Shown here piece by piece: positions 12,309 to 33,620 of a stretch of DNA of 37,515 bases (positions are counted from its first letter, which is position 1; each line of letters begins with the position of its first letter). Source of the DNA: Gemmatimonadota bacterium (GTDB lineage Bacteria; Gemmatimonadota; Gemmatimonadetes; Gemmatimonadales; GWC2-71-9); NCBI GenBank assembly GCA_036679645.1, contig JAZDCY010000018.1, positions 1 to 37,515 on the forward strand, written 5' to 3'. Position numbers and translations under genes: made by a program. The notes under the pieces were generated by a model. That model did not search any database, was not told where the DNA came from, and worked only from the letters and a program-made list of their open reading frames with translations.

Positions 12309-12621
12309 GGGGTACTCCGGTTGGCGACCGGACTAAGATGGGGCGCGAGGGCCGGGGTGGCCAGTTAGTGGGCGCGGGAACGATTGGCGATCGACGATTT
12401 GCGATTTGCGATTGTGGCCGAGGAGCACGGGCTCCGGGCCCGCGTTCGCGCGTTGAAGGCGCGCGCTCGACGCCTCAACGGCGGCAAAGTGGACCCCAAT
12501 GCGCGTTTCTGGTTGGTAGGTGCCAGGCACCGGATGGTATCCTACGGGGCGGTTCGGGCAGTGGGGTCGTTTGCTTCGCGTTCGCCTCTCTAGGCCTACC
12601 ATGCGTGCCACCGTTTAGGGT

Positions 12622-12705
12622 GCTGGCGTGGCGGAACTGGTAGACGCAACAAGCTGACACCTTGTTGAGCGAAAGCTCGTGCCGGTTCGAATCCGGCCGC
12701 CAGCA
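12622..12705 (+). tRNA. Class II (long variable arm) tRNA with tRNA-Leu-type body and GAC (Val) anticodon
   Basis: Acceptor GCTGGCG/CGCCAGC, D arm GCGGAACTGGTAGACGC, anticodon stem ACAAG/CTTGT with loop CT-GAC-AC, variable arm GAGC-GAAA-GCTC, T arm GCCGG-TTCGAAT-CCGGC, discriminator A; CCA not encoded. Confidence 0.93.
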
Positions 12706-12929
12706 CCCACCGCACGATTGACGGGATGTGGCACTGCGCCGTATCTTAGGATCATCAAGGTGTCAGCTTGCGCAGGTGATTTCCGCTGCGTCAGACAGAG
12801 ACCGGGAGGCTCATGGCCTTCCGGTCTCGTGCGTTCCCTGGCGTCTGTTGCTGTACGTCATTGCTCACCGTCCCCGCGCCAACGCTATACCTCGGTATGG
12901 CCGACTCCGCAAGCACTCGCAGACCCCCC

Positions 12930-12975: not shown

Positions 12976-13080
12976 TCGGTCGAGTGGGTCGGTGGCGCGC
13001 TCCGCGAGCTGCGCGAGCTGCCTGCCCCGGTGCAGGACGTGATGGGCTACGTGATCTACCTCAAGCAATACGGTGAGGAC
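12976..13080 (+). pseudogene. Relic of a RelE/ParE-superfamily (Gp49/HigB-like) toxin N-terminus
   Basis: SVEWVGGALRELRELPAPVQDVMGYVIYLKQYGE resembles the Gp49-type toxin start; in-frame TGA at 12973; remainder of the toxin absent. Confidence 0.65.
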
Positions 13081-13083
13081 ATC

Positions 13084-13419
13084 ATGAGGCGCAGTCGTGT
13101 TTCCAAAGTCACCGCTTCGAGCGGCAACGTTTTTCGCGACATCGGTTTCGCCGATGCCGACCGGCGTGCCGCCAAGGCCGAACTCGTCCGCACGATTGCG
13201 CACCTGATCGGCCAACGTGGCGCTACGCAGCAGGCCGCCGCCGAGTTGCTGGGGATCGACCAGCCAAAGGTCTCGAACCTGTTACGCGGGCGGCTCGCCG
13301 GGTTCTCGACCGAGCGGCTGTTGGGGTTTCTGACCGCGCTCGGCCGCGACGTGCAGATCGTTGTGCGGGCCACACCGCGCGCCCGTCGCCGCGGTCGCGT
13401 GCGTGTCGTGAGTCGGTAG
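13084..13419 (+). CDS. XRE-family HTH antitoxin (HigA2/HTH_37-like)
   Basis: SSGNVFRDIGF...TQQAAAELLGIDQPKVSNLLRGRLAGFSTERLLGFLTALGRDVQIVV; GAGGA RBS before ATG 13084. Confidence 0.88.
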   Translation: MRRSRVSKVTASSGNVFRDIGFADADRRAAKAELVRTIAHLIGQRGATQQAAAELLGIDQPKVSNLLRGRLAGFSTERLLGFLTALGRDVQIVVRATPRARRRGRVRVVSR

Positions 13420-13430
13420 CCGCTGCGAGT

Positions 13431-13597
13431 TCGCCGCTAAAGCGGCGATTGCCGAGTCATCGCTCGTCTGCGACTCGCGATGCTCGGCCTCGCGCCGCTC
13501 GCAAGCTCGCGGATACGATCGGCTGATGTCACTGAAGTGACCCTTGCTGCCCCCACGCCGCTTTAGCGACATCTGCCGAGCCGCGACTTTAGTCGCG
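13431..13597. repeat. REP-like hairpin cluster, copy B
   Basis: TCGCCGC-TAAA-GCGGCGA, GTCAC-TGAA-GTGAC, GCCGC-TTTA-GCGAC, CGCGAC-TTTA-GTCGCG; shares TCGGCTGATGTCACT.AAGTGAC...CCCCCACG.CGCTTTAGCGACA.CTGCCGAG with copy A. Confidence 0.75.
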
Positions 13598-13623
13598 ATA
13601 AACGACGCGAGATACGGTCACGG

Positions 13624-13760
13624 CTACCGCCCCCGCGCCAACTCCTCGAGCGCCGCCCGCGCGTCGGTCACCATCCACACGTACTCGGGATCGGGCTCGG
13701 TGAACGTCTCCAAGAACGTGAGGTAGTGCTCCTCGGCGCGCCGTGGTCTTGCAGCTGGGG
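13624..13760 (-). pseudogene. 3' relic of a TPR-tailed protein, probably the kinase whose 5' end lies at 16014-16085
   Basis: RAEEHYLTFLETFTEPDPEYVWMVTDARAALEELARGR* has high-GC codon usage and resembles the terminal TPR/capping helices of kinase-TPR proteins. Confidence 0.55.
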
Positions 13761-13847
13761 CTAGGTAGAATGTCGAGGCCCGAGGGAGACAAAAGAGGAA
13801 GCTCTTCGGGTGCGGGTGGAGCCGAACTTGTTGGGGCGAGAATTGGC

Positions 13848-14702
13848 CTATCCGTCGATCTCGCGATACCGTTGCACCCATTGCTTCACTATCGCGGGAA
13901 GTCTCTGAACAACCTCAGCCCCAAACAGAATTTCGTCTACATAACCCATATGCAGCATGTCAATCATACGACACAGATAAGAGCGTCCACATTCCCACCA
14001 CGTGTAGTGGGCATCAACAATGAGTAAGTGCTCAACCCAGATGCCCTCGCTGGAGTGCAACTCCTCCAACTCCATCCCGTCCAACAATGTCTCATAAACG
14101 CCGTCAGCCACACGACTCCCAAACGTTGTCGTGTAGTAATACTCCTTGATTTCCCAAACGGCCTGCGGGTTGACCGGGCTCGGGAATGCCCCGTCAACGC
14201 GTCGGGCAAGTGTACGTACTGGCTCACCATCTTGAGTGACCGTGGTTAATTCTCTTGGGTCGTAGTCTACGGGTATCCCTTCTGCCGAAGCCTCTACTAG
14301 CATGTTGACGATGCAAGTCAAGTATGCGGGGCCCGCTTTGCCACCCTTTTGTTTGTTCTTCGGTAGGGGACAACTCGGAGTGAGTTTTCTCTTGAGGGCT
14401 TTGTACAAGGCTGACGCTTTCGTTACATCCATCAGCCTCGGCTCGACGAAAGTATTCAGGACACGCGCTCGGAACTCAAAGTAGTCATGCAGTAGCTCTG
14501 CGTGGTCGGTCGGTTTTCCACTGGCATCTATCAAGTGCTCCGTGCCAAGTTCCAGCTCGTGCATAGACTGAAGCATGTCTCTTACAGAGTGTATCTTGAC
14601 CTGATGTGTTCGACGTTCAGTATATCCGCGGTGTTGACTGATGGTTCGTACGTTGGCCCAGAATCGCTTGGACAGATTGGAGAAACGAGTTTCAGCGCGC
14701 AT
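13848..14702 (-). CDS. Putative type II restriction endonuclease (PD-(D/E)xK)
   Basis: RVDGAFP...WEIKE catalytic-type motif; translationally coupled (TAATG) to a controller gene and divergent from an adenine MTase; visibly lower GC. Confidence 0.75.
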   Translation of the reverse strand: MRAETRFSNLSKRFWANVRTISQHRGYTERRTHQVKIHSVRDMLQSMHELELGTEHLIDASGKPTDHAELLHDYFEFRARVLNTFVEPRLMDVTKASALYKALKRKLTPSCPLPKNKQKGGKAGPAYLTCIVNMLVEASAEGIPVDYDPRELTTVTQDGEPVRTLARRVDGAFPSPVNPQAVWEIKEYYYTTTFGSRVADGVYETLLDGMELEELHSSEGIWVEHLLIVDAHYTWWECGRSYLCRMIDMLHMGYVDEILFGAEVVQRLPAIVKQWVQRYREIDG

Positions 14703-14953
14703 TACTGACCCTCTTGAATTCTTCGCTCGAAGTGAGCAAGGAAATCTGGTAGGCTCACACCAAGAGCCTCACAGACCGATCGCAGTTCCGCCATATCAAG
14801 ACGGCGGTCCCCAGATTCATACTTGCTCACAAACGACTGTGGCAAACCCAGCCGGTCTGCCATGTCTTGCTGTCTTAGATCCGCAGCTTCTCGGTACTCC
14901 CGAAGCATGGTGTTCAGCAATAACCTTTGCACCTGAAGTGTTTTTCTATTCAC
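14702..14953 (-). CDS. XRE HTH protein, probable R-M controller (C) protein
   Basis: LREYREAADLRQQDMADRLGLPQSFVSKYESGDRRLDMAEL; GTG 14953 chosen; directly upstream of the REase. Confidence 0.85.
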   Translation of the reverse strand: MNRKTLQVQRLLLNTMLREYREAADLRQQDMADRLGLPQSFVSKYESGDRRLDMAELRSVCEALGVSLPDFLAHFERRIQEGQ

Positions 14954-15037
14954 GTGCGGCAAGATCTGGTCTAACGCTTGAGCGATTTCGGTGACGTAGA
15001 TTCGGAAAAGGCTGATAACGTTAGGGGTAGGAGTTCG

Positions 15038-15065
15038 TTGACAATATCCCAAAATGGGATATCTT
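15038..15065 (+). promoter_or_regulatory. MTase promoter with operator palindrome between -35 and -10
   Basis: TTGACA (15038-43), 16-nt spacer, TATCTT (15060-65); perfect inverted repeat ATATCCCA-AAA-TGGGATAT (15044-15062). Confidence 0.65.
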
Positions 15066-15114
15066 TCGCTTTGGAGGTAGTCTGACAACCCGACCACCAA
15101 GTCCTCGAGCCTCA

Positions 15115-16008
15115 ATGCAACTTGCACTTCTAGACCTCGAAGGCAACCAGCGCGCAAACGGGCGTCTCTTGAAGCCCTTCAAGACACAATTGTTGAAGTG
15201 GGTAGGCAACAAACAGCGGTTTGCCCACGAAATCGTTTCCTTTTTCCCAGAGAAATCTACTACCTATTACGAACCCTTCCTGGGCAGCGGGGCCGTACTG
15301 GGAACTCTCGCTCCGAGGCAAGCCATTGCTGGAGACGCCCTCGAACCGCTGGTTGAGATTTGGAAGACGCTCGCCGACTGCCCGGAACAACTGAAGGAAT
15401 GGTACGCGGAACGGTGGCGGATGTTGATGTCCGCCGGCAAGGTGGAGGGATATCAGCGAATAAAGGCTGCCTACAACGCCAGCCCCAACGCCGCGGATTT
15501 GCTTTTCATTTCCCGGTCATGCTACGGGGGGGTGGTGCGATTTCGGCAAGCCGACGGTTACATAAGCACCCCGTGCGGTGCCCACAAGCCGGTACCCCCG
15601 GATTCTTTCGCCAAGCGAGTCGATATCTGGCACCAGAGAACGAAGGGTACGAGGTTTCTACATGCCGATTTTCAGCAGCTGATGGACATCGCGGAGCCCG
15701 GGTCGATCGTCTATTGTGACCCGCCATACACTCACACCCAGGCGATTCTGTACGGCGCTCAGAGGTTCTCGTTGCCACGATTGTTCGAGACAATATCCGA
15801 CTGCAAGGAGCGTGGAGTACGTGTCGTCTTGAGTATAGACGGTTCAAAGAAATCCGGTGCCCTGCTTTGCGACGTAGCAGTTCCTCCGGGGTTGTTCGAA
15901 CGTGAGGTAATGGTGCACTGTGGACGTTCGATGCTCCGGCGATTCCAGCGAAGTGGGGAAACGTTGGAGGACGAGGTCGTGAAAGACCGGCTACTACTCA
16001 CCTATTGA
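15115..16008 (+). CDS. DNA adenine methyltransferase, Dam/D12 (alpha) class
   Basis: LKWVGNK, YYEPFLGSGAV (motif I), YCDPPY (motif IV). Confidence 0.92.
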   Translation: MQLALLDLEGNQRANGRLLKPFKTQLLKWVGNKQRFAHEIVSFFPEKSTTYYEPFLGSGAVLGTLAPRQAIAGDALEPLVEIWKTLADCPEQLKEWYAERWRMLMSAGKVEGYQRIKAAYNASPNAADLLFISRSCYGGVVRFRQADGYISTPCGAHKPVPPDSFAKRVDIWHQRTKGTRFLHADFQQLMDIAEPGSIVYCDPPYTHTQAILYGAQRFSLPRLFETISDCKERGVRVVLSIDGSKKSGALLCDVAVPPGLFEREVMVHCGRSMLRRFQRSGETLEDEVVKDRLLLTY

Positions 16009-16013
16009 CGCTC

Positions 16014-16085
16014 ACCCAGCTCGCGACGGACGGCGTAGCGGTCCGCGAGGGCGGCTTTCAGGCAGTCGAGCTGTTCGTCGGCCAA
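16014..16085 (-). pseudogene. 5' relic (24 codons) of a second Ser/Thr kinase gene
   Basis: TTG-ADEQLDCLKAALADRYAVRRELG; 16028-16119 matches 12251-12342 at 85/92 nt by hand; homology ends at the Gly-rich loop, next to the MTase stop. Confidence 0.85.
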
Positions 16086-16154
16086 GGGGTAGTCCGGTTG
16101 GCGACGGGACTAAGATGGGGCGTGTAGGGCGGGAGGGCCAGCTACGGGACCTGG

Positions 16155-16320
16155 ACGATTTGCGATTGCCGATTGGCGATTGGCGATTGAGTCTAAAGGG
16201 TGGGTTTATCGCCGAGAGGTCTTGGCCGTGTTCGAGGAGACGGTCTTGTAGCCGTTGAGGACTGAATCCGGAAGACATGGCGGCTCCCTCAGCAATCGCA
16301 AATCTGCAATCGCCGATCGT
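16155..16320. repeat. Inverted arrays of GCGATT(G/T) heptamer repeats flanking a tiny gene relic; the same heptamers occur at 12381-12415
   Basis: GATTTGCGATTGCCGATTGGCGATTGGCGATTG at about 16158-16190 and CAATCGCAAATCTGCAATCGCCGATCG at about 16293-16319. Confidence 0.7.
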
Positions 16321-16387
16321 TCTACCGCCACGTATGCTCAAAATCACGCACCGGGCACATCACCCGCCCGCTGCGCAAAGCAAACAA

Positions 16388-16477
16388 CGGAGAGGGGGGG
16401 ATTCGAACCCCCGGTAGAGCTTTAAACCCTACAACGGTTTAGCAAACCGGCGCCTTCAGCCACTCGGCCACCTCTCC
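16388..16477 (-). tRNA. tRNA-Ser(GCT)
   Basis: GGAGAGG/CCTCTCC acceptor, D arm GCCGAGTGGCTGAAGGC, loop TT-GCT-AA, long variable arm, GGGGG-TTCGAAT-CCCCC, G73; one C:U mismatch at the top of the anticodon stem. Confidence 0.95.
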
Positions 16478-16485
16478 AAACTGCT

Positions 16486-16587: not shown

Positions 16588-17271
16588 CTACATCCCCGCC
16601 AGGATCGCCGGGAAGTTCAACGTCACCTTCTTCTTCCCGTCGCCCGAGATGGGGTGTTCCCCTAAGTACACGTCGAACAGCGCCCAACAGAGCGCCGGAG
16701 ACTCGAGGTCAGGCTCTTCGCGATCCCGGATGTGCGTCGAGAGGGTCCCTTCGGGCGTGCACGTGAAGATCAGCTCCGACTCCTTCACCATCTCCTCGAC
16801 CGAGAAGTAGTTGCGGAACGTGTCCAGCGCCTCCACACCGCCCGGCATGCTCATCTCCGCCGCCGCCCGCTCGACCCGTGGTCGCAGCGCCCCGTCGAAC
16901 GCATCGGCCATCCGTTCGGCGCCGACGTCGCGGGTCATGACCAGCCGCAGCGTCATGCCAAAGTCCATCTCCAGGATCGCGTCGTAGAACTCGTCCGAAC
17001 GCTCGAGGTCGCGGTGACTCTGTCCGTTGAAGCTCGAGAGCTTCTCGACCGCCCCCGCCGAATCGACGTACAGGCCGAACGCGTAGACTTTGATCTTGAG
17101 GAACGTGCGGGTGCGTATGCCGGTCCCCGTGAGGATGTGTTGCCCGGCGGGCGTGTCGAGCCACATGGGGAACGGAACGCCGCTCTTCGGCTCCTCGACG
17201 GTGGCGACTTCCTGTGCCGCAAGCGGCAAGGCGAGCGCCAAGGCTGTCAGGCCCATCAACGTTGCGCGCAT
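16588..17271 (-). CDS. Exported chalcone-isomerase-fold protein
   Basis: Signal peptide; VEEPKSGVPFP...LTGTGIRTRTFLKIKVYAFGLYVD, ALFDVYLGEHPIS; GGAGAG RBS. Confidence 0.85.
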   Translation of the reverse strand: MRATLMGLTALALALPLAAQEVATVEEPKSGVPFPMWLDTPAGQHILTGTGIRTRTFLKIKVYAFGLYVDSAGAVEKLSSFNGQSHRDLERSDEFYDAILEMDFGMTLRLVMTRDVGAERMADAFDGALRPRVERAAAEMSMPGGVEALDTFRNYFSVEEMVKESELIFTCTPEGTLSTHIRDREEPDLESPALCWALFDVYLGEHPISGDGKKKVTLNFPAILAGM

Positions 17272-17393
17272 GATCTCTCCATTTGGGTGCTCCTCGAATC
17301 TCGCTCGCGAGACGAACCCTCGCTAGAGGCGTGATGGTTCGGGCCGCCTGCCATTATGACGTCCCGTTGTCCCCTGGCTATACTTCGACCCCG

Positions 17394-19457
17394 ATGTCCG
17401 ACACCTCCACTTCCGATCAGGGCGTCCGCGCGCCCGCCGACCTCAATCCCCGCACCGAGCCGGCGCTCGACTTTCCCGACGCCGATTTCGGCGCGATGAC
17501 ACCGGCCGACTACGACTCCATCGGGTTCCTGGGCGGGCTCGAGGTCCATCAGCAACTCCTCACCCGCTCGAAGCTCTTCTGCCGCTGCCCGGCAGGGCGC
17601 ACCGCTCACACCCACGACGCAGAAGTCCTGCGCCACATGCGCCCCACGTTGAGCGAGTTGGGCGAATACGACGGCACGGCGCTGATGGAGTTCAAGACGC
17701 GCAAGGACATCGTGTACCGGCTGGAGCGCAGCTCCGTCTGCACGTACGAGATCGATGACACGCCACCCTTCGAGATCGACGACGATGCGGTCCGCATTGC
17801 CATCGAGCTCGCCGCGCTGCTGAACCTCAATCTCGTCTCCGAGCTGCACGTGATGCGCAAACAGTATCTCGACGGGTCTATCCCGACCGGGTTCCAGCGC
17901 ACCGCAATGGTCGGCCTCGACGGTGCCATTCCGTTCGTCGTTCCCGAGTTGGGCGTGAGTCGCGACCTGCGCATCCGGCAGCTCTCGCTCGAGGAGGATT
18001 CCTGCCGCGAGGTGAGCGATGTCGGTCACCGGATCACATTCAAGACCGATCGGCTCGGGATGCCACTCAGTGAGGCGGTGACCGAGCCCGAATTACTGAC
18101 GCCACTCGAAATGCAGGCAGCCGGCCGGCTGCTGGCGGTGGTGGCACGCGCAACCAAGAAGATCCGCCGCGGGGCAGGGGCTGCGCGGCAGGACGTGAAC
18201 GTGTCCATCGCGGGCGGACGGCGCGTCGAGATCAAGGGCGTACACTACCATCGCCGCCTGCCGCAACTCGTGCACATAGAGGCGTTCCGCCAACTGAACC
18301 TGCTACGGGTGCGAGCCGAGTTGCGCCGCCGTGGCATGACCAAGGAAATGCTCGCGATTCCTGCGGTGGGCGTTCCATGGGAGGTGTCGCCGTTGGTTGC
18401 CGACGTTACACGTCTACTCTCGGGTGCCAAGGTACAAGCGATGCGGGAGGCAGCGGAACGGGGCGACACTGCCTGCGCGGTCCGGTTGCCCGGGTTCAGC
18501 GGGTTGCTTGCCCATAAGACGCAACCGGGCGTCAACTTCGCGCAGGAATTCAGCGAACGTGTACGGGTGATTGCCTGTCCCGAGCACGCGCCGTTCATGA
18601 CGCACTCCGATGCCGAGTCGGGACTGCGCGCAGATGAATGGCGAGAGATACGCCAACAGGTCGGTGCCGAGCGTGATGACGCCATCGTCATCGTCTGGGC
18701 TCCGCGCGACGACGCGGCCACGGCCGCCCGAGAGATCCTGATACGCGCTCAGGATGCGTTGGCGGGCGTGCCGGCGGAGACACGACAGGCGCGGCGCGAT
18801 GGCACGACGGGTTTCGAGCGCATTCTCCCAGGGGCCGACCGCATGTATCCCGACACCGACACACCGCCATTGCCAATTGCGGACACGGTCGTGAAACGGA
18901 TCCGGGCGCATCTGCCGGAGACGCCGTGGGCGCGTGAAGCGCGTTACGTGACACTGGGACTGGAGGAAGATTTGGCGCGCCGCCTCGTACGTTCGCCATG
19001 GGCGGATCTGTTCGACGCGGTGAACCCACCGGCGACTCTCGCCGGACGAACCGCGACCACGATACTGGAGAGGCTTTCCTATCATAGTCGGCGCGCGGGA
19101 TCGCGGCCGATTGTCGAGCCGACGCGCGTCACGGCGATTGTCCAGGCGATCGCAGGCGGCGAGGTGCGCGTCGAAGCGTTCGCGCGCATGATTGACGCGA
19201 TCACCACCGAACCCGATACGCCGGTCCAGGCCATCCTTGATCGGTATCGCAAGCGCGACAACGACGACGAGGCGCTGCGGGACGCGATCGACACTGCCGT
19301 CACCGGCGCGCGCACACTACGGGGCCATGAGCCCGATCCTTCGCTGCGTTGGGCGATGGGACAGGTGATGGCGTCTCTGCTCGGTCGCGTCGATCCGCAT
19401 CGTGTGCGCACTATGCTACGCGAGCACCTCGCCGGCGTCACACCGGAGGCCGCGTGA
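17394..19457 (+). CDS. gatE: Glu-tRNA(Gln) amidotransferase subunit E (archaeal type)
   Basis: GLEVHQQL..SKLFCRCP, LRHMRPTLSELGEYD, CTYEIDDTPP, MRKQYLDGSIPTGFQRT, LEEDSCR, DRLGMPLSE, RQDVNVSI, EIKGV, GAD-like insertion (THSD), LPGADRMYPDTDTPP. Confidence 0.93.
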   Translation: MSDTSTSDQGVRAPADLNPRTEPALDFPDADFGAMTPADYDSIGFLGGLEVHQQLLTRSKLFCRCPAGRTAHTHDAEVLRHMRPTLSELGEYDGTALMEFKTRKDIVYRLERSSVCTYEIDDTPPFEIDDDAVRIAIELAALLNLNLVSELHVMRKQYLDGSIPTGFQRTAMVGLDGAIPFVVPELGVSRDLRIRQLSLEEDSCREVSDVGHRITFKTDRLGMPLSEAVTEPELLTPLEMQAAGRLLAVVARATKKIRRGAGAARQDVNVSIAGGRRVEIKGVHYHRRLPQLVHIEAFRQLNLLRVRAELRRRGMTKEMLAIPAVGVPWEVSPLVADVTRLLSGAKVQAMREAAERGDTACAVRLPGFSGLLAHKTQPGVNFAQEFSERVRVIACPEHAPFMTHSDAESGLRADEWREIRQQVGAERDDAIVIVWAPRDDAATAAREILIRAQDALAGVPAETRQARRDGTTGFERILPGADRMYPDTDTPPLPIADTVVKRIRAHLPETPWAREARYVTLGLEEDLARRLVRSPWADLFDAVNPPATLAGRTATTILERLSYHSRRAGSRPIVEPTRVTAIVQAIAGGEVRVEAFARMIDAITTEPDTPVQAILDRYRKRDNDDEALRDAIDTAVTGARTLRGHEPDPSLRWAMGQVMASLLGRVDPHRVRTMLREHLAGVTPEAA

Positions 19458-20791
19458 GCGACACCGCCACCGACAAATACCGCGGCTACCGCGGGCCGTG
19501 TCTGGAATTGATGAAGCGGTTCGACGTGACCGTGTGGAGCGAGGTCAAGCTCGACACGTCGCGCGGCGCGTTCGCCGGGCTGCTCCTGCCGCGGTCCGAG
19601 ACGAGCGACGAACTCCACCTCGTGCTCAAGCTCGTGTCGGGCTACAACATTGGGGTGCGGTACGACACCGTCACGGCGATCGAGCAGACCGGGTACAGGG
19701 AAGCGCACTACCAGATTCCGGAGAAGGCATTTCCCACGAGTCCGGACAAACCGAACGTCAAGTTGTTCGGCACGGGCGGTACCATCGCTTCGCGTCTCGA
19801 CTACCGCACGGGTGCGGTGATCCCCGCGTTCACACCCGGTGAGCTGTACGGGTCCGTGCCGGAGCTGGCGGACATCTGCAACCTCGAGACCGAGAAGCTG
19901 TTCGGGATCTTCTCCGAGAAATACCACGGGGTCATGGTGGGGCACGGCACGGACACGATGCACCACACGGCCTCGGCGTTGAGTTTCATGGTGCAGCGAC
20001 CACCCATCCCGATCGTTATGGTGGGGAGCCAACGGTCGTCCGACCGCCCGTCTTCCGATGCCGCACGCAACCTCATCAACGCCGCGTGGACGGCGGCGCA
20101 CGGGTCCATTGCCGAGGTGATGGTCTGTATGTTCGGCCCGACGTCCGATCGGTACAACCTGCTGCACCGCGGCACGCGTGTGCGCAAGATGCACAGCTCC
20201 TACCGCAGCACGTTCCGCACGCTGGGCGACATCCCGTTGGCGATGGTCGAGGACGGTACGCTCACGTTGCTCAAGGACGACTGCCTGCCACGACGTGACG
20301 ATCGGTCGGTCGATATCCGTGCCGCATTCGACGACCGGGTCACGCTGCTCTACTACTACCCCGGCATGCGCGCCGACGTGCTCGAGGCGCTCGTCGATCG
20401 CGGATATCGCGGGGTCGTAATCGCCGGGACCGGGCTGGGTCACGTGAACCGACAGACCTACCCGGCGCTCGAGCGAGCGCGCGATGCGGGGGTGCACGTA
20501 TACATGACGCTCCAGACGCTCTGGGGCTTCGTACAGATGAACGTGTACGAGACCGGCCGAGAGATCCTGGAGTTGGGGGTAGTGCCGCTCGCCAACATGT
20601 TGCCCGAGGTAGCCTACATCAAACTCGGTTGGGCACTCGGTCTCCATCCGGATGATCCAGCCGCGGTGCGAGAACTCATGGCATCGTGCGTTGCCGGGGA
20701 AACCACGGATCGTGAACCCCACGACGGTTACCTCGTCCTGCAGGGTGGTGTACCCGAGGTCAGGGAGTTCTTCGCAAAGGCCTGGAAATAG
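19454..20791 (+). CDS. gatD: Glu-tRNA(Gln) amidotransferase subunit D (archaeal type), with an apparent ~20-aa in-frame deletion
   Basis: GatD N-domain (LKLVSGYNIG), TGGTIASRLDYRTGAV, HGTDT, GSQRSSDRPSSD, RGTRVRKMHSSYRSTF, GTGLGHV, MLPEVAYIKLGW; GTGA overlap with gatE. Confidence 0.93.
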   Translation: MSDTATDKYRGYRGPCLELMKRFDVTVWSEVKLDTSRGAFAGLLLPRSETSDELHLVLKLVSGYNIGVRYDTVTAIEQTGYREAHYQIPEKAFPTSPDKPNVKLFGTGGTIASRLDYRTGAVIPAFTPGELYGSVPELADICNLETEKLFGIFSEKYHGVMVGHGTDTMHHTASALSFMVQRPPIPIVMVGSQRSSDRPSSDAARNLINAAWTAAHGSIAEVMVCMFGPTSDRYNLLHRGTRVRKMHSSYRSTFRTLGDIPLAMVEDGTLTLLKDDCLPRRDDRSVDIRAAFDDRVTLLYYYPGMRADVLEALVDRGYRGVVIAGTGLGHVNRQTYPALERARDAGVHVYMTLQTLWGFVQMNVYETGREILELGVVPLANMLPEVAYIKLGWALGLHPDDPAAVRELMASCVAGETTDREPHDGYLVLQGGVPEVREFFAKAWK

Positions 20792-21996
20792 CCAGCGCGC
20801 CGCCCGCTCCCGCCGCGGACCGTCCGGTCCTTCGGGATCCCAATCTCCATGTCATCTTTGGCGTGACGCTCATGGCGGTGCTGGGTGTCGCGAGCATTAC
20901 GCCAACGCTGCCCCGTATCGCTACCGTGTTCGACTTGACCCCCGAACGGGCCGGTCTCGTGGTCTCGATGTTCACGCTGCCGGGTGTCATACTCACCCCC
21001 GTCTTCGGTGTGCTGAGCGATCGGATTGGGCGGATCCGCGTACTCATTCCGTCGCTCCTCCTGTTTGCCGTTGCGGGCACGGCGTGCGCGTTCGCACGGG
21101 ATTTTGGCGTGCTGCTCGCACTCCGTTTCGTTCAGGGTATCGGGGTCGCGGCACTGGGCGTCATCAACCTCACGCTGCTCGGCGATCTTTTTCGCGGGAA
21201 TCGGTTGCCGACCGCGATGGGCTACAACGCCAGCGTGCTGAGTATTGGGACGGGCGTATACCCGGCCCTCGGCGGGGCGCTCGCACTCACGGCCTGGTAC
21301 TACCCGTTTGCGCTGCCGTTGCTCGCCGTCCCTGTCGCGGGGTTCGTGTGGTGGCGGCTGCGCGTGCCACACGTGCCGAGCGATGAGCGGTTTACTACGT
21401 ACCTGCGCGGCGCCGCCGGCGAGGTGGGACGGCCCGCCGTGATAGGGTGCTTCCTGGCAGGACTCGTGACGTTCATCCTGATCTACGGCGCGTTTCTCAC
21501 CTACCTCCCCTTCCTGCTGGCCGAGCGATTCGAGGCATCGCCGGCGAGGATCGGGTTGCTCATCTCGGCCGCCTCTGTCAGCACGGCGATCGTGTCCGCG
21601 CGACTCGGTCGGCTCGTGGCGCGGTTTGGTGAACGACGTCTCATGCTCGTCGGTTTCGCGATCTACGTGATCTCGTTGCTTGCGCTTCCGGTGGCAGGCA
21701 GCACGTGGACTCTTCTTGCGGCCATCCTGCTCTTCGGCGCGGCGAATGGGATCAACATTCCGAGCATGTTGAGCTTGCTCATGTCGTTGGCGCCGGCGCA
21801 GTACCGGGCTGCGTTCATGGCGGTGAATGGGTCGCTGTTCCGGCTGGGCCAGACAGTCGGCCCCTTGCTCGCGGCACTCGCGCTGAGGTGGTGGGGTCTC
21901 GATGGCGTGTACCTCGCGAGCGCCGGAGCGGCGGCTGTCACGCTGGCGGTTGTTGCGGGGCTGACGCGCCGACCCCAGCCTGCGGAGTCCCCGTAG
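20788..21996 (+). CDS. MFS transporter (start uncertain: ATA 20788 or GTG 20863)
   Basis: About 12 TM segments; motif A GVLSDRIGRIRV; LRFVQGIG; the open frame extends upstream of 20863 as RPVLRDPNLHVIFG. Confidence 0.88.
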   Translation: MASAPPAPAADRPVLRDPNLHVIFGVTLMAVLGVASITPTLPRIATVFDLTPERAGLVVSMFTLPGVILTPVFGVLSDRIGRIRVLIPSLLLFAVAGTACAFARDFGVLLALRFVQGIGVAALGVINLTLLGDLFRGNRLPTAMGYNASVLSIGTGVYPALGGALALTAWYYPFALPLLAVPVAGFVWWRLRVPHVPSDERFTTYLRGAAGEVGRPAVIGCFLAGLVTFILIYGAFLTYLPFLLAERFEASPARIGLLISAASVSTAIVSARLGRLVARFGERRLMLVGFAIYVISLLALPVAGSTWTLLAAILLFGAANGINIPSMLSLLMSLAPAQYRAAFMAVNGSLFRLGQTVGPLLAALALRWWGLDGVYLASAGAAAVTLAVVAGLTRRPQPAESP

Positions 21997-22106: not shown

Positions 22107-22547
22107 GTGAACCTGACTCGGGAAAGTGAATACGCGCTGCGAGGGCTGGTCCGTCTTGCCACGTATCCGCCCGGGTCCATGGTGTCCCACTCCGAAATCG
22201 CCAAGGCGGCGGAACTGCCCGCAGCGTTCCTGGCCAAGATCTTCCAGAAGTTGGCCCGGCACGGCGTGCTCGAGGTTGAGCGAGGTCGCGGGAGCGGGTA
22301 CGCGCTCAAGCGAGCGCCCGAGCGGACGCCCGTGAGCGAGGTGTTCGAGGCAATCGAGGGTCCGCAGGCGCTGAAACGCTGTCTGATCTGGGGCGGCCAC
22401 TGTAGCGAGACGGCGCCGTGTCCCCTTCATGAACGGTTCGAGCATCTCCACGCGGAATTGGATGAGATGCTGTGCACGATCACGTTGGCCGATTTCGCCA
22501 ACGAGTTGCCGATCTTCCCTCCACCCCGGGTTGCGAGAGTGACGTGA
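22107..22547 (+). CDS. Rrf2 family transcriptional regulator with three Cys (Fe-S binding)
   Basis: SEYALRGL, FLAKIFQKL, RGRGSGY, C-LIWGGH-C-SETAP-C-PLH. Confidence 0.92.
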   Translation: MNLTRESEYALRGLVRLATYPPGSMVSHSEIAKAAELPAAFLAKIFQKLARHGVLEVERGRGSGYALKRAPERTPVSEVFEAIEGPQALKRCLIWGGHCSETAPCPLHERFEHLHAELDEMLCTITLADFANELPIFPPPRVARVT

Positions 22548-23377
22548 TGACCAGACTGCTTTTGCTTGGCTGTGCACTGGCGGCGTGGCTGGGGACGATC
22601 ACCTCGGTCGCGGCCGCCCAGACGAGCCAGGAACTGTTTCAGACACGCTGCGCGGTGTGCCATACCGTTGGCGGCGGCAAGCTCGTGGGGCCCGATCTCC
22701 AGGGGGTCGCCGAGCGCCGCAGCGAGGACTGGATCATCCGGTTCGTGCAACACTCCCAGCAACTCGTGCAGTCGGGCGATTCCACCGCCGTAGCGCTGTT
22801 CGCGGAGTTCAATGGAATCCCGATGCCCGACCAACCGCTGTCCGATCAAGAGATCCGCGGGATCATGGCGTACATCCGCGGTTCCGGCTCCACCGCACCC
22901 GCCGCGCCGCCGCCGGTCGAGCAGGCGACGGCAGAGCAGATCCTTCTTGGGCAGGCGCTGTTCCAGGGGACCACGAGGCTCGCTAACGCCGGACCCACGT
23001 GCAACTCGTGCCACGACGTGACCAATGACGCCGTGATCGGCGGCGGGGTGCTCGCGCGCGAGCTGACGACGGTGTTCTCCCGGCTGGGTGGACCGGGCGT
23101 CCGCGCGATTCTGGGAAGCCCGCCGTTCCCCGTGATGCAACGGGCCTACGAGGACAAGCCGCTGACCGATGACGAGGTCGTCGCGCTGGTGGGTTTCCTT
23201 CAGCAGGCCGACGAAGAGCAGTCCCTGCATCAGCCGCGCGACTACGGCATGGGACTCCTCGTCGCCGGAGCGGTCGGCACGGTCCTGCTCCTCGGTCTCT
23301 ACTCGCTGATTTGGCGTGGACGACTGAGAGGGTCCGTCAACCAATCGATCTACGACCGACAGATCAAGTCCATCTGA
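22547..23377 (+). CDS. Periplasmic diheme c-type cytochrome with C-terminal membrane anchor (NarC-like)
   Basis: Signal peptide, CAVCH and CNSCH heme motifs, C-terminal TM helix, directly upstream of narG; TGATG coupling with rrf2. Confidence 0.85.
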   Translation: MTRLLLLGCALAAWLGTITSVAAAQTSQELFQTRCAVCHTVGGGKLVGPDLQGVAERRSEDWIIRFVQHSQQLVQSGDSTAVALFAEFNGIPMPDQPLSDQEIRGIMAYIRGSGSTAPAAPPPVEQATAEQILLGQALFQGTTRLANAGPTCNSCHDVTNDAVIGGGVLARELTTVFSRLGGPGVRAILGSPPFPVMQRAYEDKPLTDDEVVALVGFLQQADEEQSLHQPRDYGMGLLVAGAVGTVLLLGLYSLIWRGRLRGSVNQSIYDRQIKSI

Positions 23378-23410
23378 ATCATCCATGAGCAACGAAACCG
23401 GGTAACGACC

Positions 23411-26400
23411 ATGGGTTGGATCAAAGACATCGTCTCGCCGCAAACCAGGAAGTGGGAGGAGTTCTACCGCAACCGCTTCCAACACGATCGCATCGTGCGC
23501 AGCACGCACGGTGTGAACTGCACCGGCGGGTGCTCCTGGCAGATCCACGTGAAGGACGGCATCGTGACGTGGGAAACGCAGCAGCTCGACTACCCGCTGC
23601 TCGAGGACTCTCTCCCGCCGTATGAGCCGCGTGGCTGCCAACGGGGCATCTCGTTCTCGTGGTACCTCTACAGCCCGTTACGGATCAAGTATCCGCTGAT
23701 TCGCAGCGCGCTGCTCGATGCCTATCGCGCAAAGAAGCGCGAAACCGGCGACCCCCTGAAGGCGTGGAAGGCGTTGCAGGCGGACGAGACCGCGCGCAAA
23801 ACGTACCAACAAGCCCGTGGCAAAGGGGGATTCCGCCGCTCGACGTGGGACGAGGTCATGGAGATCATGGCCGTCGCCAACATCTACACCGCTGAGCGGT
23901 ACGGCCCCGACCGCGTGATCGGGTTCAGCCCGATACCGGCGATGTCCATGATGAGCTACGCAGCGGGCGGAAGGTTCTTGCAGCTCTTCGGCGGCGTCAA
24001 CCTCAGCTTCTACGATTGGTATTGCGATCTACCCACCGCGTTCCCCGAAATCTGGGGTGAGCAGACGGATGTCTGCGAGAGTGCCGACTGGTACAACGCG
24101 AAGATGATCGCCGACATGGGCGCGTGCCTCAACATGACCCGCACGCCCGACTGCCACTTTTTTGCGGAGTCACGGCACAACGGCACGAAGGCAGTCGTGT
24201 TCTCGCCCGACTTCAGTCAGGTGTGCAAGTACGCGGACCAGTGGGTGCCGCTCCACGCGGGAAGTGACGGCGCGTTCTGGATGGCTACGACTCACGTCAT
24301 CCTCAAAGAGTTTCACCACGAGAAACAAACGCCGTACTTCATCGACTACGCCAAGCAGTACACCGACAGTCCGTACCTGGTGAAGCTCGAGCGCGACGGC
24401 GACTCGTACAAACCAGGCCGGCTGCTTCGTGCGGCCGAGGTTTCCGAGTACAGGGACATCACGAACGGGGATTGGAAGTTCCTCAACATCGACGCGAACA
24501 CAGATAGGCTCGTGGTCCCCAAGGGTAGCTCCGGATCTCGCTGGGACGAACGCCAGGGCAACTGGAACATGAAGGCCGAGAACGCCGTCGATGATCGGCC
24601 GTACGATCCGGTGCTCACGCTGCTGGGGAGATCGACCGAAGTTGTTCAGACAAGCTTTACGGAGTTCGGACTCGACAGGTCAGTGAAACGTGGCGTGCCG
24701 GCGATGCGCGTCGAGACGATCGACGGCCCGGTTATGGTCACGACGGTATACGATCTCATCATGGCCCAGTACGGTGTGGATCGTGGGCTCCCCGGCGATT
24801 ACCCCAGCGACTATAGCGACAAGGACGCGGCATACACGCCTGCCTGGCAGGAGCTGTTTACCGGGGTCGCGTCCGACACGGTCCTGCAGTTCGCCCGCGA
24901 GTGGGCCAATACCGCAGAGGCTACCGGTGGCAAGTGCATGATCATCATTGGCGCGGGTATCAACCACTGGTACCACGCCAACCTCATGTATCGTGCTGGA
25001 GCGATGGCCCTCATGCTGACCGGTTGTGTCGGCAAGAACGGTGGCGGGCTCAATCACTATGTGGGCCAGGAGAAGCTGGCGCCGGTGGACTCCTGGTCGG
25101 CGATCGCGTTCGGCAAGGACTGGCATTCGGCGGTCCGTCTCCAGCAGGCGCCGATCTGGCATTACATCAACACGTGCCAGTATCGCTACGACGGCCAGTT
25201 CTCGAGATACAACACGGTCCCCGACAACGAGCTGACGCGGCAGCACACGGCAGACCAGATCTACCGGTCGGTTCGCATGGGGTGGATGCCGTTCTATCCG
25301 CAGTTTGAACAGAATACCCTGGAGCTGTGCCGGGAGGCGCTGGACAACGGTGCCACGGACGATGCCGGCATCACGCAGTACGTGTTGAACAAACTCAAGA
25401 GCAAGGAACTCAAGTACTCGGTAAGCGACCCGGAGGCAGAGGCCAACTTCCCCCGCGTGTGGTACATCTGGCGTGGCAACGCGATCATGGGAAGCATGAA
25501 GGGGCACGAGTACTGCCTGAAGCACTATCTGGGCACGCACTCGAACACGATCGCGCAGGACTCAGAAGATCACACGACCGAGGTGAACTGGCGGGACGTG
25601 GCGCCGGTGGGGAAGATGGATCTCATCGTCGACCTGAACTTCCGCATGGACTCGTCGGCTCTGTACTCCGACATGGTGCTGCCAGCGGCCTCATGGTACG
25701 AGAAGGCCGACCTGAACAGCACGGATCTCCACTCGTTCATCCATCCGCTGTCAGCGGCGATCGCCCCGGTGTGGGAGTCCAAGACGGATTGGCAGATCTT
25801 CCGCAACCTCGCGAAGGCGACGAGCGAAGCGGCGGCGAAGTATTTCCCCGAGCCGCAGAAGGACATCATTGCAACTCCCATAGCGCACGACTCGGCGGGT
25901 GAGATCTCCCAGCCGGTCATCAAGGACTGGTACAGAGGCGAGTGCGAGGCTGTGCCGGGAAAGACGATGCATGGGTTAGCTGTTGTCGACCGAGACTACA
26001 CCAAGCTCTACGACAAGTACATCAGCCTGGGAGATCGTATTCGGTCGACAGGCCTGGGAGCGCATGGCAACCACTACCATTGCGACGATGCGTACGACGA
26101 GATGGTCGCGTCCCGTCATTTCCCGGTCGAGCGGCAAAACGGGAACATCTACCCGTCGCTGAAGGAGGACGAGTGGGCGTGCAACACCGTCCTGCACCTT
26201 TCGAGCTTGACCAACGGGGTGCTCAACGTTCGCGCGTACGAGGACGCCGAGAAGAGGACGGGTCTGGATCTGGTCGATCTGGGTGCCGGCAGCGAGGACG
26301 TGCTCATTCGGTACGCCGATCTCCAGGCGCAACCGCGACGGTACAACACCTCTCCGTTGTGGTCGGGCGTGATGAAGGGCGGAAGGGCCTACGCTCCCTA

Positions 26401-27025
26401 CACGTACAACGTCGAGAAGCTGGTCCCGTGGCGGACGTTGACGGGGCGCCAGCACTTCTACCTGGACCACGAGATGTATCTGGCCTACGGCGAGAACCTC
26501 CCCACCTACAAGCCGTCTCCCAAACCGGAAGCGTACGGCGACCTCAAGCAAACGTTGAAGGACGGGGACGCGAGGATCCTGAACTGCCTCACCCCGCACG
26601 GGAAGTGGCACATCCACTCCACGTACATGGAAAACCTCCGCATGCTGACGCTTTCGCGGGGCTGCGAGCCGGTGTGGATGAGCGAGATCGACGCGGCGGA
26701 GCTGGGGATCCAGGACAACGACTGGGTCGAGGTCTACAACGACCACGGAGTCTACTGCTCCCGCGCCTGCGTCAGCGCTCGCATCCCCAAGGGCGTGTGC
26801 ATCGTGTACCACGTCCCGGAGCGCACGGTTGGGATTCCCAAGTCACAGGTGCGCGGCGGCAAGCGGGCAGGTGGGCACAACAGCTTCACGCGCATCCACC
26901 TCAAGCCGAATTTCCTCGCCGGCGGATACGGACAATTCACGTACCACTTCAACTATTGGGGGCCCATCGCTCCCAATCGGGACACCCACGTCGTCGTCAA
27001 GCGAATGGACAAGGTGGTGTTTTGA
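23411..27025 (+). CDS. narG: Respiratory nitrate reductase alpha subunit
   Basis: [63 protein letters not shown]; no Tat signal. Confidence 0.95.
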
Positions 27026-27061
27026 TGGCTGCACGATTGGGCAAAGGACGGGAGATATAAG

Positions 27062-28615
27062 ATGGACGTTCGTTCACAGATTTCGATGGTGTTTCATCTC
27101 GACAAGTGCATTGGTTGTCACACGTGCTCGGTCGCCTGCAAGAACATCTGGACCGACCGCAAAGGCGCCGAGTACATGTGGTGGAACAACGTCGAGACGA
27201 AGCCCGGGACGGGCTATCCGGGTAAGTGGGAAGATCAGGGAATCTACAAAGGTGGCTGGGAGAAGAACGGTGATGGGATTCGTCTCAAGGGGGCTGGGAA
27301 GCCGAAGAGCCTCACCAACATCTTCCACAACCCGCACTTGCCGGTGATCGACGACTACTACGAGCCGTTCACCTACAAGTACCTGGACCTGATAGAGTCC
27401 AAGGCCGGAGACGACCAACCCACTGCGCGTCCCATCTCGATGATCACGGGCGAACCGATGGACATCAAGATGGGACCGAACTGGGACGACGATCTCAGCG
27501 GGTCACCGGACTACGCGCGCAACGACCCCAATCTCAAGAAGCTCACGCCGGCCGAGCAGGAAGCCATGTTCCAGCTGGAGCGCATGGCGTTCTTCTATCT
27601 CCCGCGGATCTGCAACCACTGTCTCAATCCGGCCTGTGTCGCCTCGTGTCCGTCAGGGGCGATCTACAAGCGTGGCGAAGACGGGGTGGTCCTCATCAAT
27701 CAGGATGTCTGTCGTGGATGGCGCATGTGCGTCACGGCATGTCCCTACAAGAAGACGTACTACAACTGGAGTACCGGCAAATCAGAAAAGTGTATCCTGT
27801 GCTACCCGCGGATCGAGGCAGGGCATGCGCCCGCGTGCATGCACTCGTGTGTGGGTCGCATCCGCTACCTCGGCGTCATGCTCTATGACGCGGACCAGAT
27901 CGAGGCGGTGGCGTCTGCTGATGAGGCGGATGTCATACGCCGCCAGATGGACATGATTCTCGATCCGTTCGATCCGGCGGTGATTGCCGCCGCGCAGGCG
28001 AACGGCGTCGCGGACTCTACCATCGACGCCGCGCAGGCCTCGCCGGCGTACAAGTTCGTGAAGGTATGGAACCTCGCGCTGCCGCTGCATCCCGAGTACC
28101 GCACGCTGCCAATGCTCTTCTACGTCCCGCCGTTGTTGCCGGTGATGGCGTCGGTGACACCGGTCGATAACCGCGAGCAGTCAGAAAAAATGAACGACAT
28201 CGCCAAACAGTGGCCGGACAGCTGGCTCTACGACACGAGCACGAAAGAGCTGTTCGGGACCATCGACGATGCACGCTTCCCGCTCCAATACATGGCGAAC
28301 CTGTTCAGCGCGGGCGACCCGGCTCCGGTCGGGGATCGGCTGAAGAAGCTCATGGCGGTTCGGCTCTATCGACGGCGCGAGACGGTAGGAGACGTCGCAC
28401 AGGAAACGGTCGATGCGGCGCTCGCCGACACGGGCCTGACGCCACAGCTGGCTGAGGACATCTACTACCTGACCTCACTCGCACAGTTCAACGACCGGTT
28501 CGTGATCCCCGCGGCCCACCGGGAACAGGCCATCGAGATGATGGAGTTCACGGGTGACGTGAAGGGGAGTACCGGGTTCGGATTCCAGGCCGGATCGGCG
28601 CGGAGGGGATCATGA
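27062..28615 (+). CDS. narH: Respiratory nitrate reductase beta subunit
   Basis: DKCIGCHTCSVACK, CNHCLNPACVASCP, CRGWRMCVTACPY, KCILCYPR...CMHSCVGRIRY. Confidence 0.96.
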   Translation: MDVRSQISMVFHLDKCIGCHTCSVACKNIWTDRKGAEYMWWNNVETKPGTGYPGKWEDQGIYKGGWEKNGDGIRLKGAGKPKSLTNIFHNPHLPVIDDYYEPFTYKYLDLIESKAGDDQPTARPISMITGEPMDIKMGPNWDDDLSGSPDYARNDPNLKKLTPAEQEAMFQLERMAFFYLPRICNHCLNPACVASCPSGAIYKRGEDGVVLINQDVCRGWRMCVTACPYKKTYYNWSTGKSEKCILCYPRIEAGHAPACMHSCVGRIRYLGVMLYDADQIEAVASADEADVIRRQMDMILDPFDPAVIAAAQANGVADSTIDAAQASPAYKFVKVWNLALPLHPEYRTLPMLFYVPPLLPVMASVTPVDNREQSEKMNDIAKQWPDSWLYDTSTKELFGTIDDARFPLQYMANLFSAGDPAPVGDRLKKLMAVRLYRRRETVGDVAQETVDAALADTGLTPQLAEDIYYLTSLAQFNDRFVIPAAHREQAIEMMEFTGDVKGSTGFGFQAGSARRGS

Positions 28616-29334
28616 CGGCACTCATCCGTGCCCACTACGAGCAACTCGCAGCGCTCTTCGAGTACCCTGGACCAGACTATCCCGCACGCGTCCGCCTGGC
28701 GCGTGAGTGCCTTGGGAACCGATACCCGCTCGCGGTTGCCGAGTTGGACGCCTTTGCGCGGGCTCTGCCCTCGGAAACGGACACGTTCTCTCCGGAAGCG
28801 CTCAACGACATGCAGGAGGTCTTCACGCGCTCTTTCGATGTGCAGTCGATCACCACGCTCGGGGTCGGTTACGTGATGTTCGGTGACGATTACAAGCGGG
28901 GTGAGGTACTCGTCAACCTGAATCGGGAGCACCGTGCGGCCGGTGTTGATTGCGGGACCGAACTGCCGGACCATTTGCCGCTCGTGCTGCGCCTGCTGGC
29001 CAGGTGGCAGGATCCGGAGATCGTTGCGGAGTTCGTCGAGGAGATGCTGTATCCCGCGCTCGAGAAAATGATTGGTGAATTCGGGTCCGAGCGCATGGAA
29101 CAACGTAGCCGGCTTTACGAGAAACATTTCAAGACGTTGATCGCCTCGTCCGAGGAGCGCGGCACGATCTTCCGCGCGCCGCTGGCCGCTGTCTACGCGG
29201 TGCTCGCGGAGGACTTCGACCCATCCCCTCGGGAACTGTCGGAGCGGGGAAGTGATTTCCTGCACGCTGTCGGTCGCGAATTGGATATCGAGGCTAGCGA
29301 TGGGCGCCCGGCTCCGTCGGGGAGGATGCTATGA
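28612..29334 (+). CDS. narJ: Nitrate reductase Mo-cofactor assembly chaperone
   Basis: LFEYP, FTRSFD, ELPDHLPLVL; position between narH and narI. Confidence 0.9.
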   Translation: MTALIRAHYEQLAALFEYPGPDYPARVRLARECLGNRYPLAVAELDAFARALPSETDTFSPEALNDMQEVFTRSFDVQSITTLGVGYVMFGDDYKRGEVLVNLNREHRAAGVDCGTELPDHLPLVLRLLARWQDPEIVAEFVEEMLYPALEKMIGEFGSERMEQRSRLYEKHFKTLIASSEERGTIFRAPLAAVYAVLAEDFDPSPRELSERGSDFLHAVGRELDIEASDGRPAPSGRML

Positions 29335-30059: not shown

Positions 30060-30086
30060 GCCGAGATACTGTTCCGAGAGCCAACT

Positions 30087-31547: not shown

Positions 31548-31596
31548 ACGAATTGGAGAATCCAACAAGCGCCCCACCTGTGGGCCGGAGGCAGCG

Positions 31597-33147: not shown

Positions 33148-33620
33148 CAGAGCACGCTCGGAGGATCGTACGGGAAGGCGTAGCCGTCGGCTTGATCGGA
33201 GCAGGTGCGGTGGGCGCCTGGTTCTTCCTGGTCGACCTCATTGCGGGCCGGCCGTTCTTCACACCGGCAATTCTGGGGTCCGCCGTGTTCTTTGGCCTTC
33301 GTGATCCCGCGACCGTGACGATCGGCGTACAGCCGGTGCTTGCCTACACGGCGGTGCACATCGTGGCGTTCGTCGTAGTGGGCCTGATCATCGCGGCCAT
33401 CTTGGCAGAGGCGCGCAAGACGCCACACGTGCTGTGGCTGCTCGTCGAGTTCTTCATCGTGTTCGAGTTCGGTTTCCTCGCGGCGGTGGGCATCTTCTTC
33501 ACACCTCTGCTGGAAGAGCTGGCGTGGATCAACGTCGCGGTCGGAAACTTGATCGCAGCCGGGGGCATGGGATTCTACATGTGGCGCGAACACAACCAAT
33601 CTTCAGAGAGACCCTCATGA
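33144..33620 (+). CDS. Hypothetical membrane protein (about 4 TM)
   Basis: TTGA overlap with the narK2 stop and ATGA overlap with ric; hydrophobic helices, YTAVH. Confidence 0.75.
   Translation: MTEHARRIVREGVAVGLIGAGAVGAWFFLVDLIAGRPFFTPAILGSAVFFGLRDPATVTIGVQPVLAYTAVHIVAFVVVGLIIAAILAEARKTPHVLWLLVEFFIVFEFGFLAAVGIFFTPLLEELAWINVAVGNLIAAGGMGFYMWREHNQSSERPS

Follow-up and report, generated by a model that had tools for sequence, protein, structure and literature searches.

An archaeal-type GatDE amidotransferase pair in a Gemmatimonadota genome with glutaminyl-tRNA synthetase belongs to a large bacterial clade

GatDE, the amidotransferase that acts on Glu-tRNA(Gln) with an A1-U72 first pair in archaea, has been called archaea-only or an archaeal signature (PMC2811023, PMC2330236, PMC8762117, PMC9499178, PMC8007984). 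Solved forms come from Pyrococcus abyssi (PDB 1ZQ1) and Methanothermobacter thermautotrophicus (2D6F). Archaeal GatE contains an insertion domain that binds glutamyl-tRNA synthetase (GluRS) and excludes aspartyl-tRNA synthetase (AspRS) (PMC2943598), and has a short basic loop where GatB of the bacterial enzyme GatCAB has a 3-10 turn (PMC2811023). The nearest analogue by function is GatCAB of Bdellovibrio, Thermus and Deinococcus, which acts on U1-A72 substrates and is retained despite both direct synthetases, glutaminyl-tRNA synthetase (GlnRS) and asparaginyl-tRNA synthetase (AsnRS) (PMC4206432). Here we analyze a gatE-gatD pair in a 37,515-nucleotide stretch (the window; contig JAZDCY010000018.1 of assembly GCA_036679645.1) from a Gemmatimonadota bacterium, which also carries glnS and gltX. 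The pair is real and intact, belongs to the GatE and GatD protein families, and stands outside the archaeal A1-U72 pathway.

The gatD start overlaps the gatE stop by 4 bases, and both products pass the cut-offs of their family profiles (GatE: NF003107, 502 bits against 456, and TIGR00134, 435 against 320; GatD: TIGR02153, 441 against 324, and NF003217, 435 against 310), whereas gatB models give window GatE 128 to 153 bits against cut-offs above 314. An earlier note, made from the letters of this DNA, had pointed to these family signatures, to glnS and gltX in the same window and to host-like, high-GC codon usage, and all of this held. Third-position GC (GC3) is 0.78 in gatE and 0.84 in gatD, with 0.77 in both glnS and gltX and 0.65 in a nearby dam-like gene, and total GC of the pair is host-like as well. 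The note had also considered chimerism at 17 to 21 kb. A single contig from run X1, at depth 103, spans positions 17000-21500 with 0 differing letters, and the region is therefore not chimeric; this contig, the host-like GC3 and the grouping of window GatE with sequences of the same genus and phylum rule out a chimeric or contaminant origin. Window GatD is 20 residues short relative to 64 of 64 relatives. Two read-derived contigs, that of X1 and one of a related strain (X3), have 60 extra in-frame bases at the 19920/19921 junction. The gap therefore arose in assembly, and a pseudogene with an internal deletion was rejected on this ground. Run X1 may be the source sample of the window, so it corrects the assembly but adds no independent organism. 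A promoter scan placed one sigma-70-like site 5' of gatE; with 2 sites found against 0.9 expected, this is not evidence.

Window GatE aligns end to end with the solved archaeal subunits (1ZQ1_C, E=2e-94; 2D6F_C, E=2e-90), and window GatD likewise matches its counterparts in 1ZQ1 and 2D6F. In the 2D6F_C alignment, H52, E200 and E227 fall on His15, Glu157 and Glu184, the Mg ligands of M. thermautotrophicus GatE (PMC2330236), and are conserved among relatives. The GatD motifs GTGGT, HGTD and RKMH are invariant in 64/64 relatives, and GatD is 58-80% identical across phyla. Of the 74 bacterial sequences, 71 to 74 keep the catalytic residues and each of the four domains of GatE (insertion 74, helical 73, tail 71). 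The AspRS-like insertion aligns to both structures, with a PF02938 score at 351-444 (23.3) just below the cut-off (23.4), and the basic acceptor loop is kept at the archaeal length, 2 residues shorter than in GatB. Both subunits, the domain order, the Mg-binding His/Glu/Glu, the GatD Thr and Thr-Asp-Lys motifs, the insertion domain and the short basic loop are thus shared with archaeal GatDE. Bacterial GatCAB differs from this arrangement, as in GatDE the amidase GatA is replaced by GatD, and neither GatC nor the 3-10 turn forms part of the enzyme.

Unlike archaeal GatDE, the bacterial enzyme occurs in a host with GlnRS, AsnRS and U1-A72 tRNA-Gln, and its sequence has departed from the archaeal one at three motifs, all changed on the bacterial stem: the Gln after KGV is replaced, as is the L-G-T-I in the basic acceptor loop, and the tail motif GXXAXGX is lost. 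That Gln has a frequency of 0.95 in 43 archaeal-type sequences and gives way to Pro, His, Asp and others in bacteria; in the tail, the window reads DPSLRWA against GMGAMGP in 2D6F, at a position that is variable within the bacterial clade. Across phyla, the catalytic core is conserved at an identity of 0.68, against 0.29 for the helical and 0.21 for the tail domain, near background. Drift outside the core is also faster than in archaea: among pairs matched for core identity (0.60-0.65), the insertion, helical and tail domains reach 0.35, 0.21 and 0.16 in bacteria against 0.47, 0.37 and 0.34 in archaea. The archaeal set in the motif and drift comparisons was picked by the motif GLGTIRQD, so the conservation of that motif within the set is built in. 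RHMRPT, QYLDGSIPTGFQ and RMYPDTD are common to the bacterial clade and its Heimdallarchaeota-labelled sister; in the sister cluster P0284, RHMRPT, QYLDGSIP and YPDTD recur, with CSYE for CTYE. Bacteria-specific active-site residues as a mark of new chemistry were rejected for this reason, and the chemistry looks unchanged while the tRNA contacts look altered. The Asgard GatE proteins, the nearest relatives, keep KG[VI]Q (KGVQ in the Heimdallarchaeota-labelled sister) and have an archaeal host.

The earlier note had missed that the pair sits within a very large clade of bacterial sequences. A homologue search returned at least 8000 matches at E<=1e-50, and a genome scan gave 80 loci, nearly all with gatE followed by gatD, in Gemmatimonadota, Eisenbacteria, Krumholzibacteriota, Bacteroidota, Ignavibacteriota, Planctomycetota, Acidobacteriota, Myxococcota and others, so that the bacterial GatE clade spans at least 8 phyla. 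Its distribution is patchy, with gatE in 16/251 genomes of the host phylum (phylum tallies include the genomes flagged unpublished, G016, G079, G171 and G196, on which nothing else here depends) and in 38/49 of one Bacteroidales family. All 74 bacterial GatE sequences form a single clade (support 99), within which phylum-level groups are present but mixed, as further transfer would give. The sister of this clade is P0284, a cluster with a Heimdallarchaeota-labelled protein (TET29438.1; 98 by FastTree, 99 by SH-aLRT), followed by Thorarchaeota-labelled (MFW9855810.1) and Odinarchaeota-labelled (MFW9990517.1) GatE at weaker support (91 and 83). Evidence for this sister position comes from a single cluster labelled from a metagenome bin and from quick trees without bootstrap. 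A placement of bacterial GatE outside all archaea proved to be an artefact of picking the archaeal set by one motif, and wider sampling puts the clade among the Asgard-labelled sequences. Bacterial GatDE was thus likely acquired once from Asgard archaea, which agrees with the old horizontal acquisition that had been proposed for the pair. No publication describing bacterial GatDE was found in a search that covers subscription journals thinly, and supplementary genome surveys could include it. In NCBI and JGI, these bacterial proteins already bear the name GatE. One genome, G278, has two gatE matches (C7 and C155).

The host genome is 92.7% complete, and the best homologues are labelled Gemmatimonadales. 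Both of its tRNA-Gln genes are U1-A72, as is its tRNA-Asn, and tRNA-Gln(CTG) is U1-A72 in 15/15 genes recovered from 33 carrier genomes; no A1-U72 or additional tRNA-Gln was found in the host or among the 15 other carrier genes. Because the tRNA-Gln of 3 gatE-negative relatives is nearly the same as that of carriers, the tRNA is unadapted; if the substrate is a tRNA, it is the enzyme that has adapted. Host GlnRS carries YDF-H-LSD and SLCTLEF, both canonical motifs, and a conversion of GlnRS into a Glu-charging enzyme was rejected, as gatE-positive and gatE-negative genomes share the same canonical pocket motif. An A1-U72 tRNA-Gln served by GatDE beside an inactive GlnRS, the ordinary indirect pathway that had been weighed beforehand, is contradicted by the U1-A72 genes and a GlnRS that is intact by its motifs, and GatDE is, as first suggested, surplus to its textbook job. 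In the survey of the genome that had been proposed, gatB was not found, gatA gave weak amidase matches only (gatC was not searched for), AsnRS and glnA are present, and gltX is the only GluRS copy found. This GluRS is bacterial-type and of a short form that lacks a 44-residue segment holding the zinc-type cysteines; one publication reportedly concerns the dispensability of this domain. The short form occurs in 19/30 aligned sequences, among them GlnRS-less relatives that use GatCAB (G012, G043, G064 and G069). Two further observations concern tRNA-Gln. The host genes (G000:C28:30368-30440 and C67:59033-59103) end in A73, likewise seen in gatE-negative relatives, and A73 is the archaeal tRNA-Gln discriminator (PMC9499178). 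In G275 and G276, tRNA-Gln(CTG) lies directly 3' of glnS.

The gene order of gltX and a divergent gatE-gatD-glnS unit is conserved in Gemmatimonadales, so that glnS and gltX of the window are parts of one ancestral cluster and not chance neighbors, a point that the earlier note did not make. The glnS gene stands directly 3' of gatD in 7 loci (L026, L034-L038, L072), with the same adjacency in G081, G082, G219 and G002, and overlaps the gatE start in the Planctomycetota record L063; gltX adjoins gatE divergently in L034, L036, L037 and L038. In the window, glnS is about 13.7 kb away from gatD, and the ancestral cluster has been split by insertions, the nitrate-respiration block among them. In 25 loci of relatives, no homologue of narG or of the RIC protein gene was found next to gatDE or glnS. 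GlnRS of four gatE-negative genomes (G063, G087, G126, G159) nests within a gatE-positive group (support 96), and in G063 gltX and glnS are adjacent with no gatDE between them; gatDE has therefore been lost more than once.

Presence of GatDE goes with that of GlnRS, which was found in 39/40 distinct gatE carriers against 9/35 gatE-negative genomes of the host family (the 39 combine 13/16 and 25/25 handles, two of the 25 being duplicates, with contig-end fragments in G001 and G190 and the host). The 40th carrier, G164, has an assembly gap at the glnS site. GatDE as the sole route to Gln-tRNA in G001, G164 or G190 was rejected, given the glnS fragments or assembly gaps. An asnS match is present in 80/80 genomes. 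Within the host family, gatB occurs in 100/104 gatE-negative but 2/11 gatE-positive genomes (p=5e-9 on raw counts), and among GlnRS holders in 7/9 without gatE against 2/12 with it. GatCAB loss among carriers is thus a strong trend by raw counts, but it is not significant when relatedness is taken into account. Two genomes (G009 and G230) show none of the three routes, so misses do occur in the gene searches. G074 has two GluRS genes (C23 and C36) in addition to GlnRS and GatDE.

From these data we tentatively favor, at somewhat less than even odds, a reading in which GatDE is a second-line tRNA amidotransferase, GatCAB-like in role and retuned to bacterial tRNA, that would repair Glu-tRNA(Gln) beside an intact GlnRS; it takes up, as our preferred reading, the backup or proofreading route named in the earlier note. 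GatE and GatD retain all catalytic residues and domains. Host GluRS would descend from a lineage whose GlnRS-less members must use this one enzyme to load Glu onto tRNA-Gln, and some Glu-tRNA(Gln) may still be made; such residual product is plausible because the short GluRS form is common to GlnRS-less, GatCAB-using relatives. Changes in the acceptor-contact loop and the relaxed helical and tail domains would then let GatDE accept U1-A72 tRNA, as GatCAB does, with ATP-dependent amidation presumably taking place on the aminoacyl-tRNA. Some activity on Asp-tRNA(Asn) is possible, since tRNA-Asn carries the same U1-A72 pair. The linkage to gltX and glnS, the glnA gene next to the pair in L074 and L092, the co-occurrence with GlnRS and the raw gatB counts of the host family count in favor of the repair reading. 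The retained insertion, if it still binds GluRS and excludes AspRS, would speak for Glu-tRNA(Gln) repair, and in bacteria the cellular role of GatCAB is set by which synthetase mischarges (PMC2811023).

Several observations weigh against such a repair role. PMC4206432 states that no bacterium is known with both routes to Gln-tRNA(Gln). No carrier was found with GatDE as its sole route, as would also be expected of an enzyme poor at making Gln-tRNA; the linkage to glnS may reflect co-transfer only, and gatDE has been repeatedly lost. The host-family carriers all fall in one subclade of the AspRS tree, where 4 independent pairs give no significant trend, and gatB accompanies gatE in 31/66 gatE-bearing handles across phyla, in which a rescue enzyme would be redundant, while G126 and G159 have GlnRS without either amidotransferase. 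The GluRS anticodon Arg, which we take to correspond to Arg358, is present in 30/30 sequences, 11 of them from GlnRS-less genomes, and is therefore not diagnostic of GluRS discrimination.

A possible but less probable function is asparagine supply, in which GatDE would amidate Asp-tRNA(Asn) made by the single AspRS, as GatCAB does in bacteria with GlnRS and AsnRS. Carriers have the very gene set in which Bdellovibrio GatCAB serves Asn synthesis (PMC4206432). Archaeal GatDE refuses Asp-tRNA(Asn) by way of the first pair and the D-loop (PMC2330236), and here tRNA-Asn is U1-A72 and the tail motif tied to that rejection (PMC2811023) is lost, in a domain whose identity at matched core is about half the archaeal value. 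The host lacks asnA as well as gatB. Of its two AsnB-like genes, one adjoins a PMT-type glycosyltransferase gene and the other belongs to a polysaccharide cluster, so that no clear Asn source is left. In 5 further gatB-less carriers asnA was found in none, and it directly precedes gatE in L089, as aspS does in L101. The PMT-type glycosyltransferase gene followed directly by the AsnB-like amidotransferase gene (G000:C5:704-4262) is syntenic in 8/8 orthologue loci of relatives, with or without gatE. However, an AsnB-like gene is present in 5/5 carriers tested and in 5/5 comparison genomes, a census that is uninformative, and the insertion that blocks AspRS is kept in all bacterial sequences. An exchange with AsnA was not seen in the one Bacteroidales family compared, where asnA occurs in 22/38 gatE-positive and 3/11 gatE-negative genomes (p=0.10, in the wrong direction); in the host phylum, asnA (9/251, none in carriers) is uninformative on this point. 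AsnA needs free ammonia, so the missing exchange weakens asparagine supply without deciding against it. Five gatB-less carriers (G272, G286, G291, G297, G300) have His at an AspRS motif position, which would mark a non-discriminating enzyme and speak for asparagine supply, although no publication supporting this signature was found; host AspRS, like that of all Gemmatimonadota read, has Leu there, which speaks against it. Neither this Leu/His signature nor the GluRS Arg separates carriers from non-carriers in the host phylum, and both were rejected as carrier markers. Neighbors on the Gln side also outnumber those on the Asn side. Possible at the same lower probability is a wider scenario of a single entry of Asgard-derived GatDE into bacteria, followed by a switch to U1-A72 tRNA and service as a third tRNA-dependent asparagine route across many phyla.

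A GatDE that no longer uses tRNA and acts on a free amino acid or some other carboxylate is unlikely; it could be, for instance, an Asn synthetase that depends on Gln or a Gln synthetase that depends on Asn, and its tRNA-binding domains would be remnants. The steep fall in conservation from the core to the helical and tail domains and the patchy, dispensable distribution would suit such an enzyme. So would some of its neighbors: a scan outside the host family (56 upstream and 48 downstream neighbors of 67 and 56 picked, with repeats and already identified genes omitted and L027 added) met mostly unrelated genes, together with two glnA (directly upstream of gatE-gatD in L074 and L092), two glutamine synthetase-like genes, two dicarboxylate symporters, and one each of asnA and aspS. 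Set against this, the helical and tail domains are retained nearly throughout, the basic acceptor loop is kept, the active-site motifs equal those of the archaeal sister, the pair is linked to two aminoacyl-tRNA synthetase genes, the host has its own glnA, and the MFS (major facilitator superfamily) transporter gene next to gatD is not conserved. Least probable is a GatDE with no current function, whether carried along in a glnS cassette, brought in by contamination or in decay. Repeated loss, co-location with glnS and the apparent deletion in window GatD could be cited for it, but the deletion is an assembly error within one contig of uniform depth, GatD keeps 58-80% identity across phyla, catalytic residues are invariant, GC3 is host-like, and window GatE groups with its own genus and phylum.

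The features of the window are listed in Table 1. The MFS gene had been read as coupled and as a possible hint at a small-molecule role. It begins 72 bases 3' of the gatD stop and is adjacent but not translationally coupled; no homologue of it was found in 86 related loci (some short or duplicate), and the 48 downstream neighbors scanned include one unrelated MFS gene 3' of gatD (L068). Of the proposed gatE-gatD-MFS neighborhood, the gatE-gatD part is conserved and the MFS part is not, and MFS as a GatDE partner was rejected. Homologues of the chalcone-isomerase-like gene are found in L035 and L072, and next to gltX in G001. Some loci depart from the usual arrangement. L101 (2589-6447, + strand), with aspS directly 5' of gatE, has no gatD within its 14-kb locus; L040 (7782-11447, + strand) has gatE and gatD in one 1221-residue frame, possibly a fusion or a sequencing error, the two being separate in the close relative L069; and in L049 (1353-4782) gatE and gatD lie on opposite strands and converge. 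Upstream in the window, a low-GC island beside a tRNA-Ser(GCT) looks like a restriction-modification unit.

Table 1. Coordinates of genes and other features in the window
Feature	Position	Strand	Description
gltX	2252..3565	-	GluRS, short form; TIGR00464, 452 bits against cut-off 290
tRNA-Val(GAC) call	12621..12709		ARAGORN, 89 bases; odd length, possibly a false call or remnant
Low-GC island	13000..16478		by tRNA-Ser(GCT); includes HTH (helix-turn-helix) genes
DUF7687/DUF7690 protein gene	13848..14702		in low-GC island
dam-like methyltransferase gene	15115..16008		in low-GC island
Chalcone-isomerase-like gene	16588..17271	-	PF16035; cluster member in part of relatives
gatE	17394..19457	+	687 aa; kinase/transamidase subunit: cradle, AspRS-like insertion, helical and tail domains
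gatD	19454..20791	+	asparaginase-type ammonia donor subunit; GatD N-terminal domain (PF18195); GTG start
MFS transporter gene	20863..21996	+	PF07690; neighbor outside the GatDE system
Nitrate-respiration block	22107..34351	+	Rrf2 regulator, dihaem-type cytochrome c, narGH-I, two NarK-type transporters, RIC protein
glnS	34535..36229	+	GlnRS without YqeY tail; TIGR00440, 725 bits against cut-off 426
DUF2231 membrane protein gene	36247..37086	+	3' of glnS; equal position in G002

Overall, a bacterial clade in at least 8 phyla contradicts the archaea-only view of GatDE and removes the enzyme as a domain marker, and the clade probably records an old Asgard-to-bacteria transfer. If GatDE repairs Glu-tRNA(Gln), these are bacteria with both routes to Gln-tRNA(Gln), a combination that PMC4206432 states to be unknown. 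If it makes Asn, it would have switched its specificity to a substrate that archaeal GatDE refuses and would constitute a natural experiment in amidotransferase specificity. Under either reading, the bacterial clade opens to testing the way in which the first base pair and the D-loop are read by GatE.

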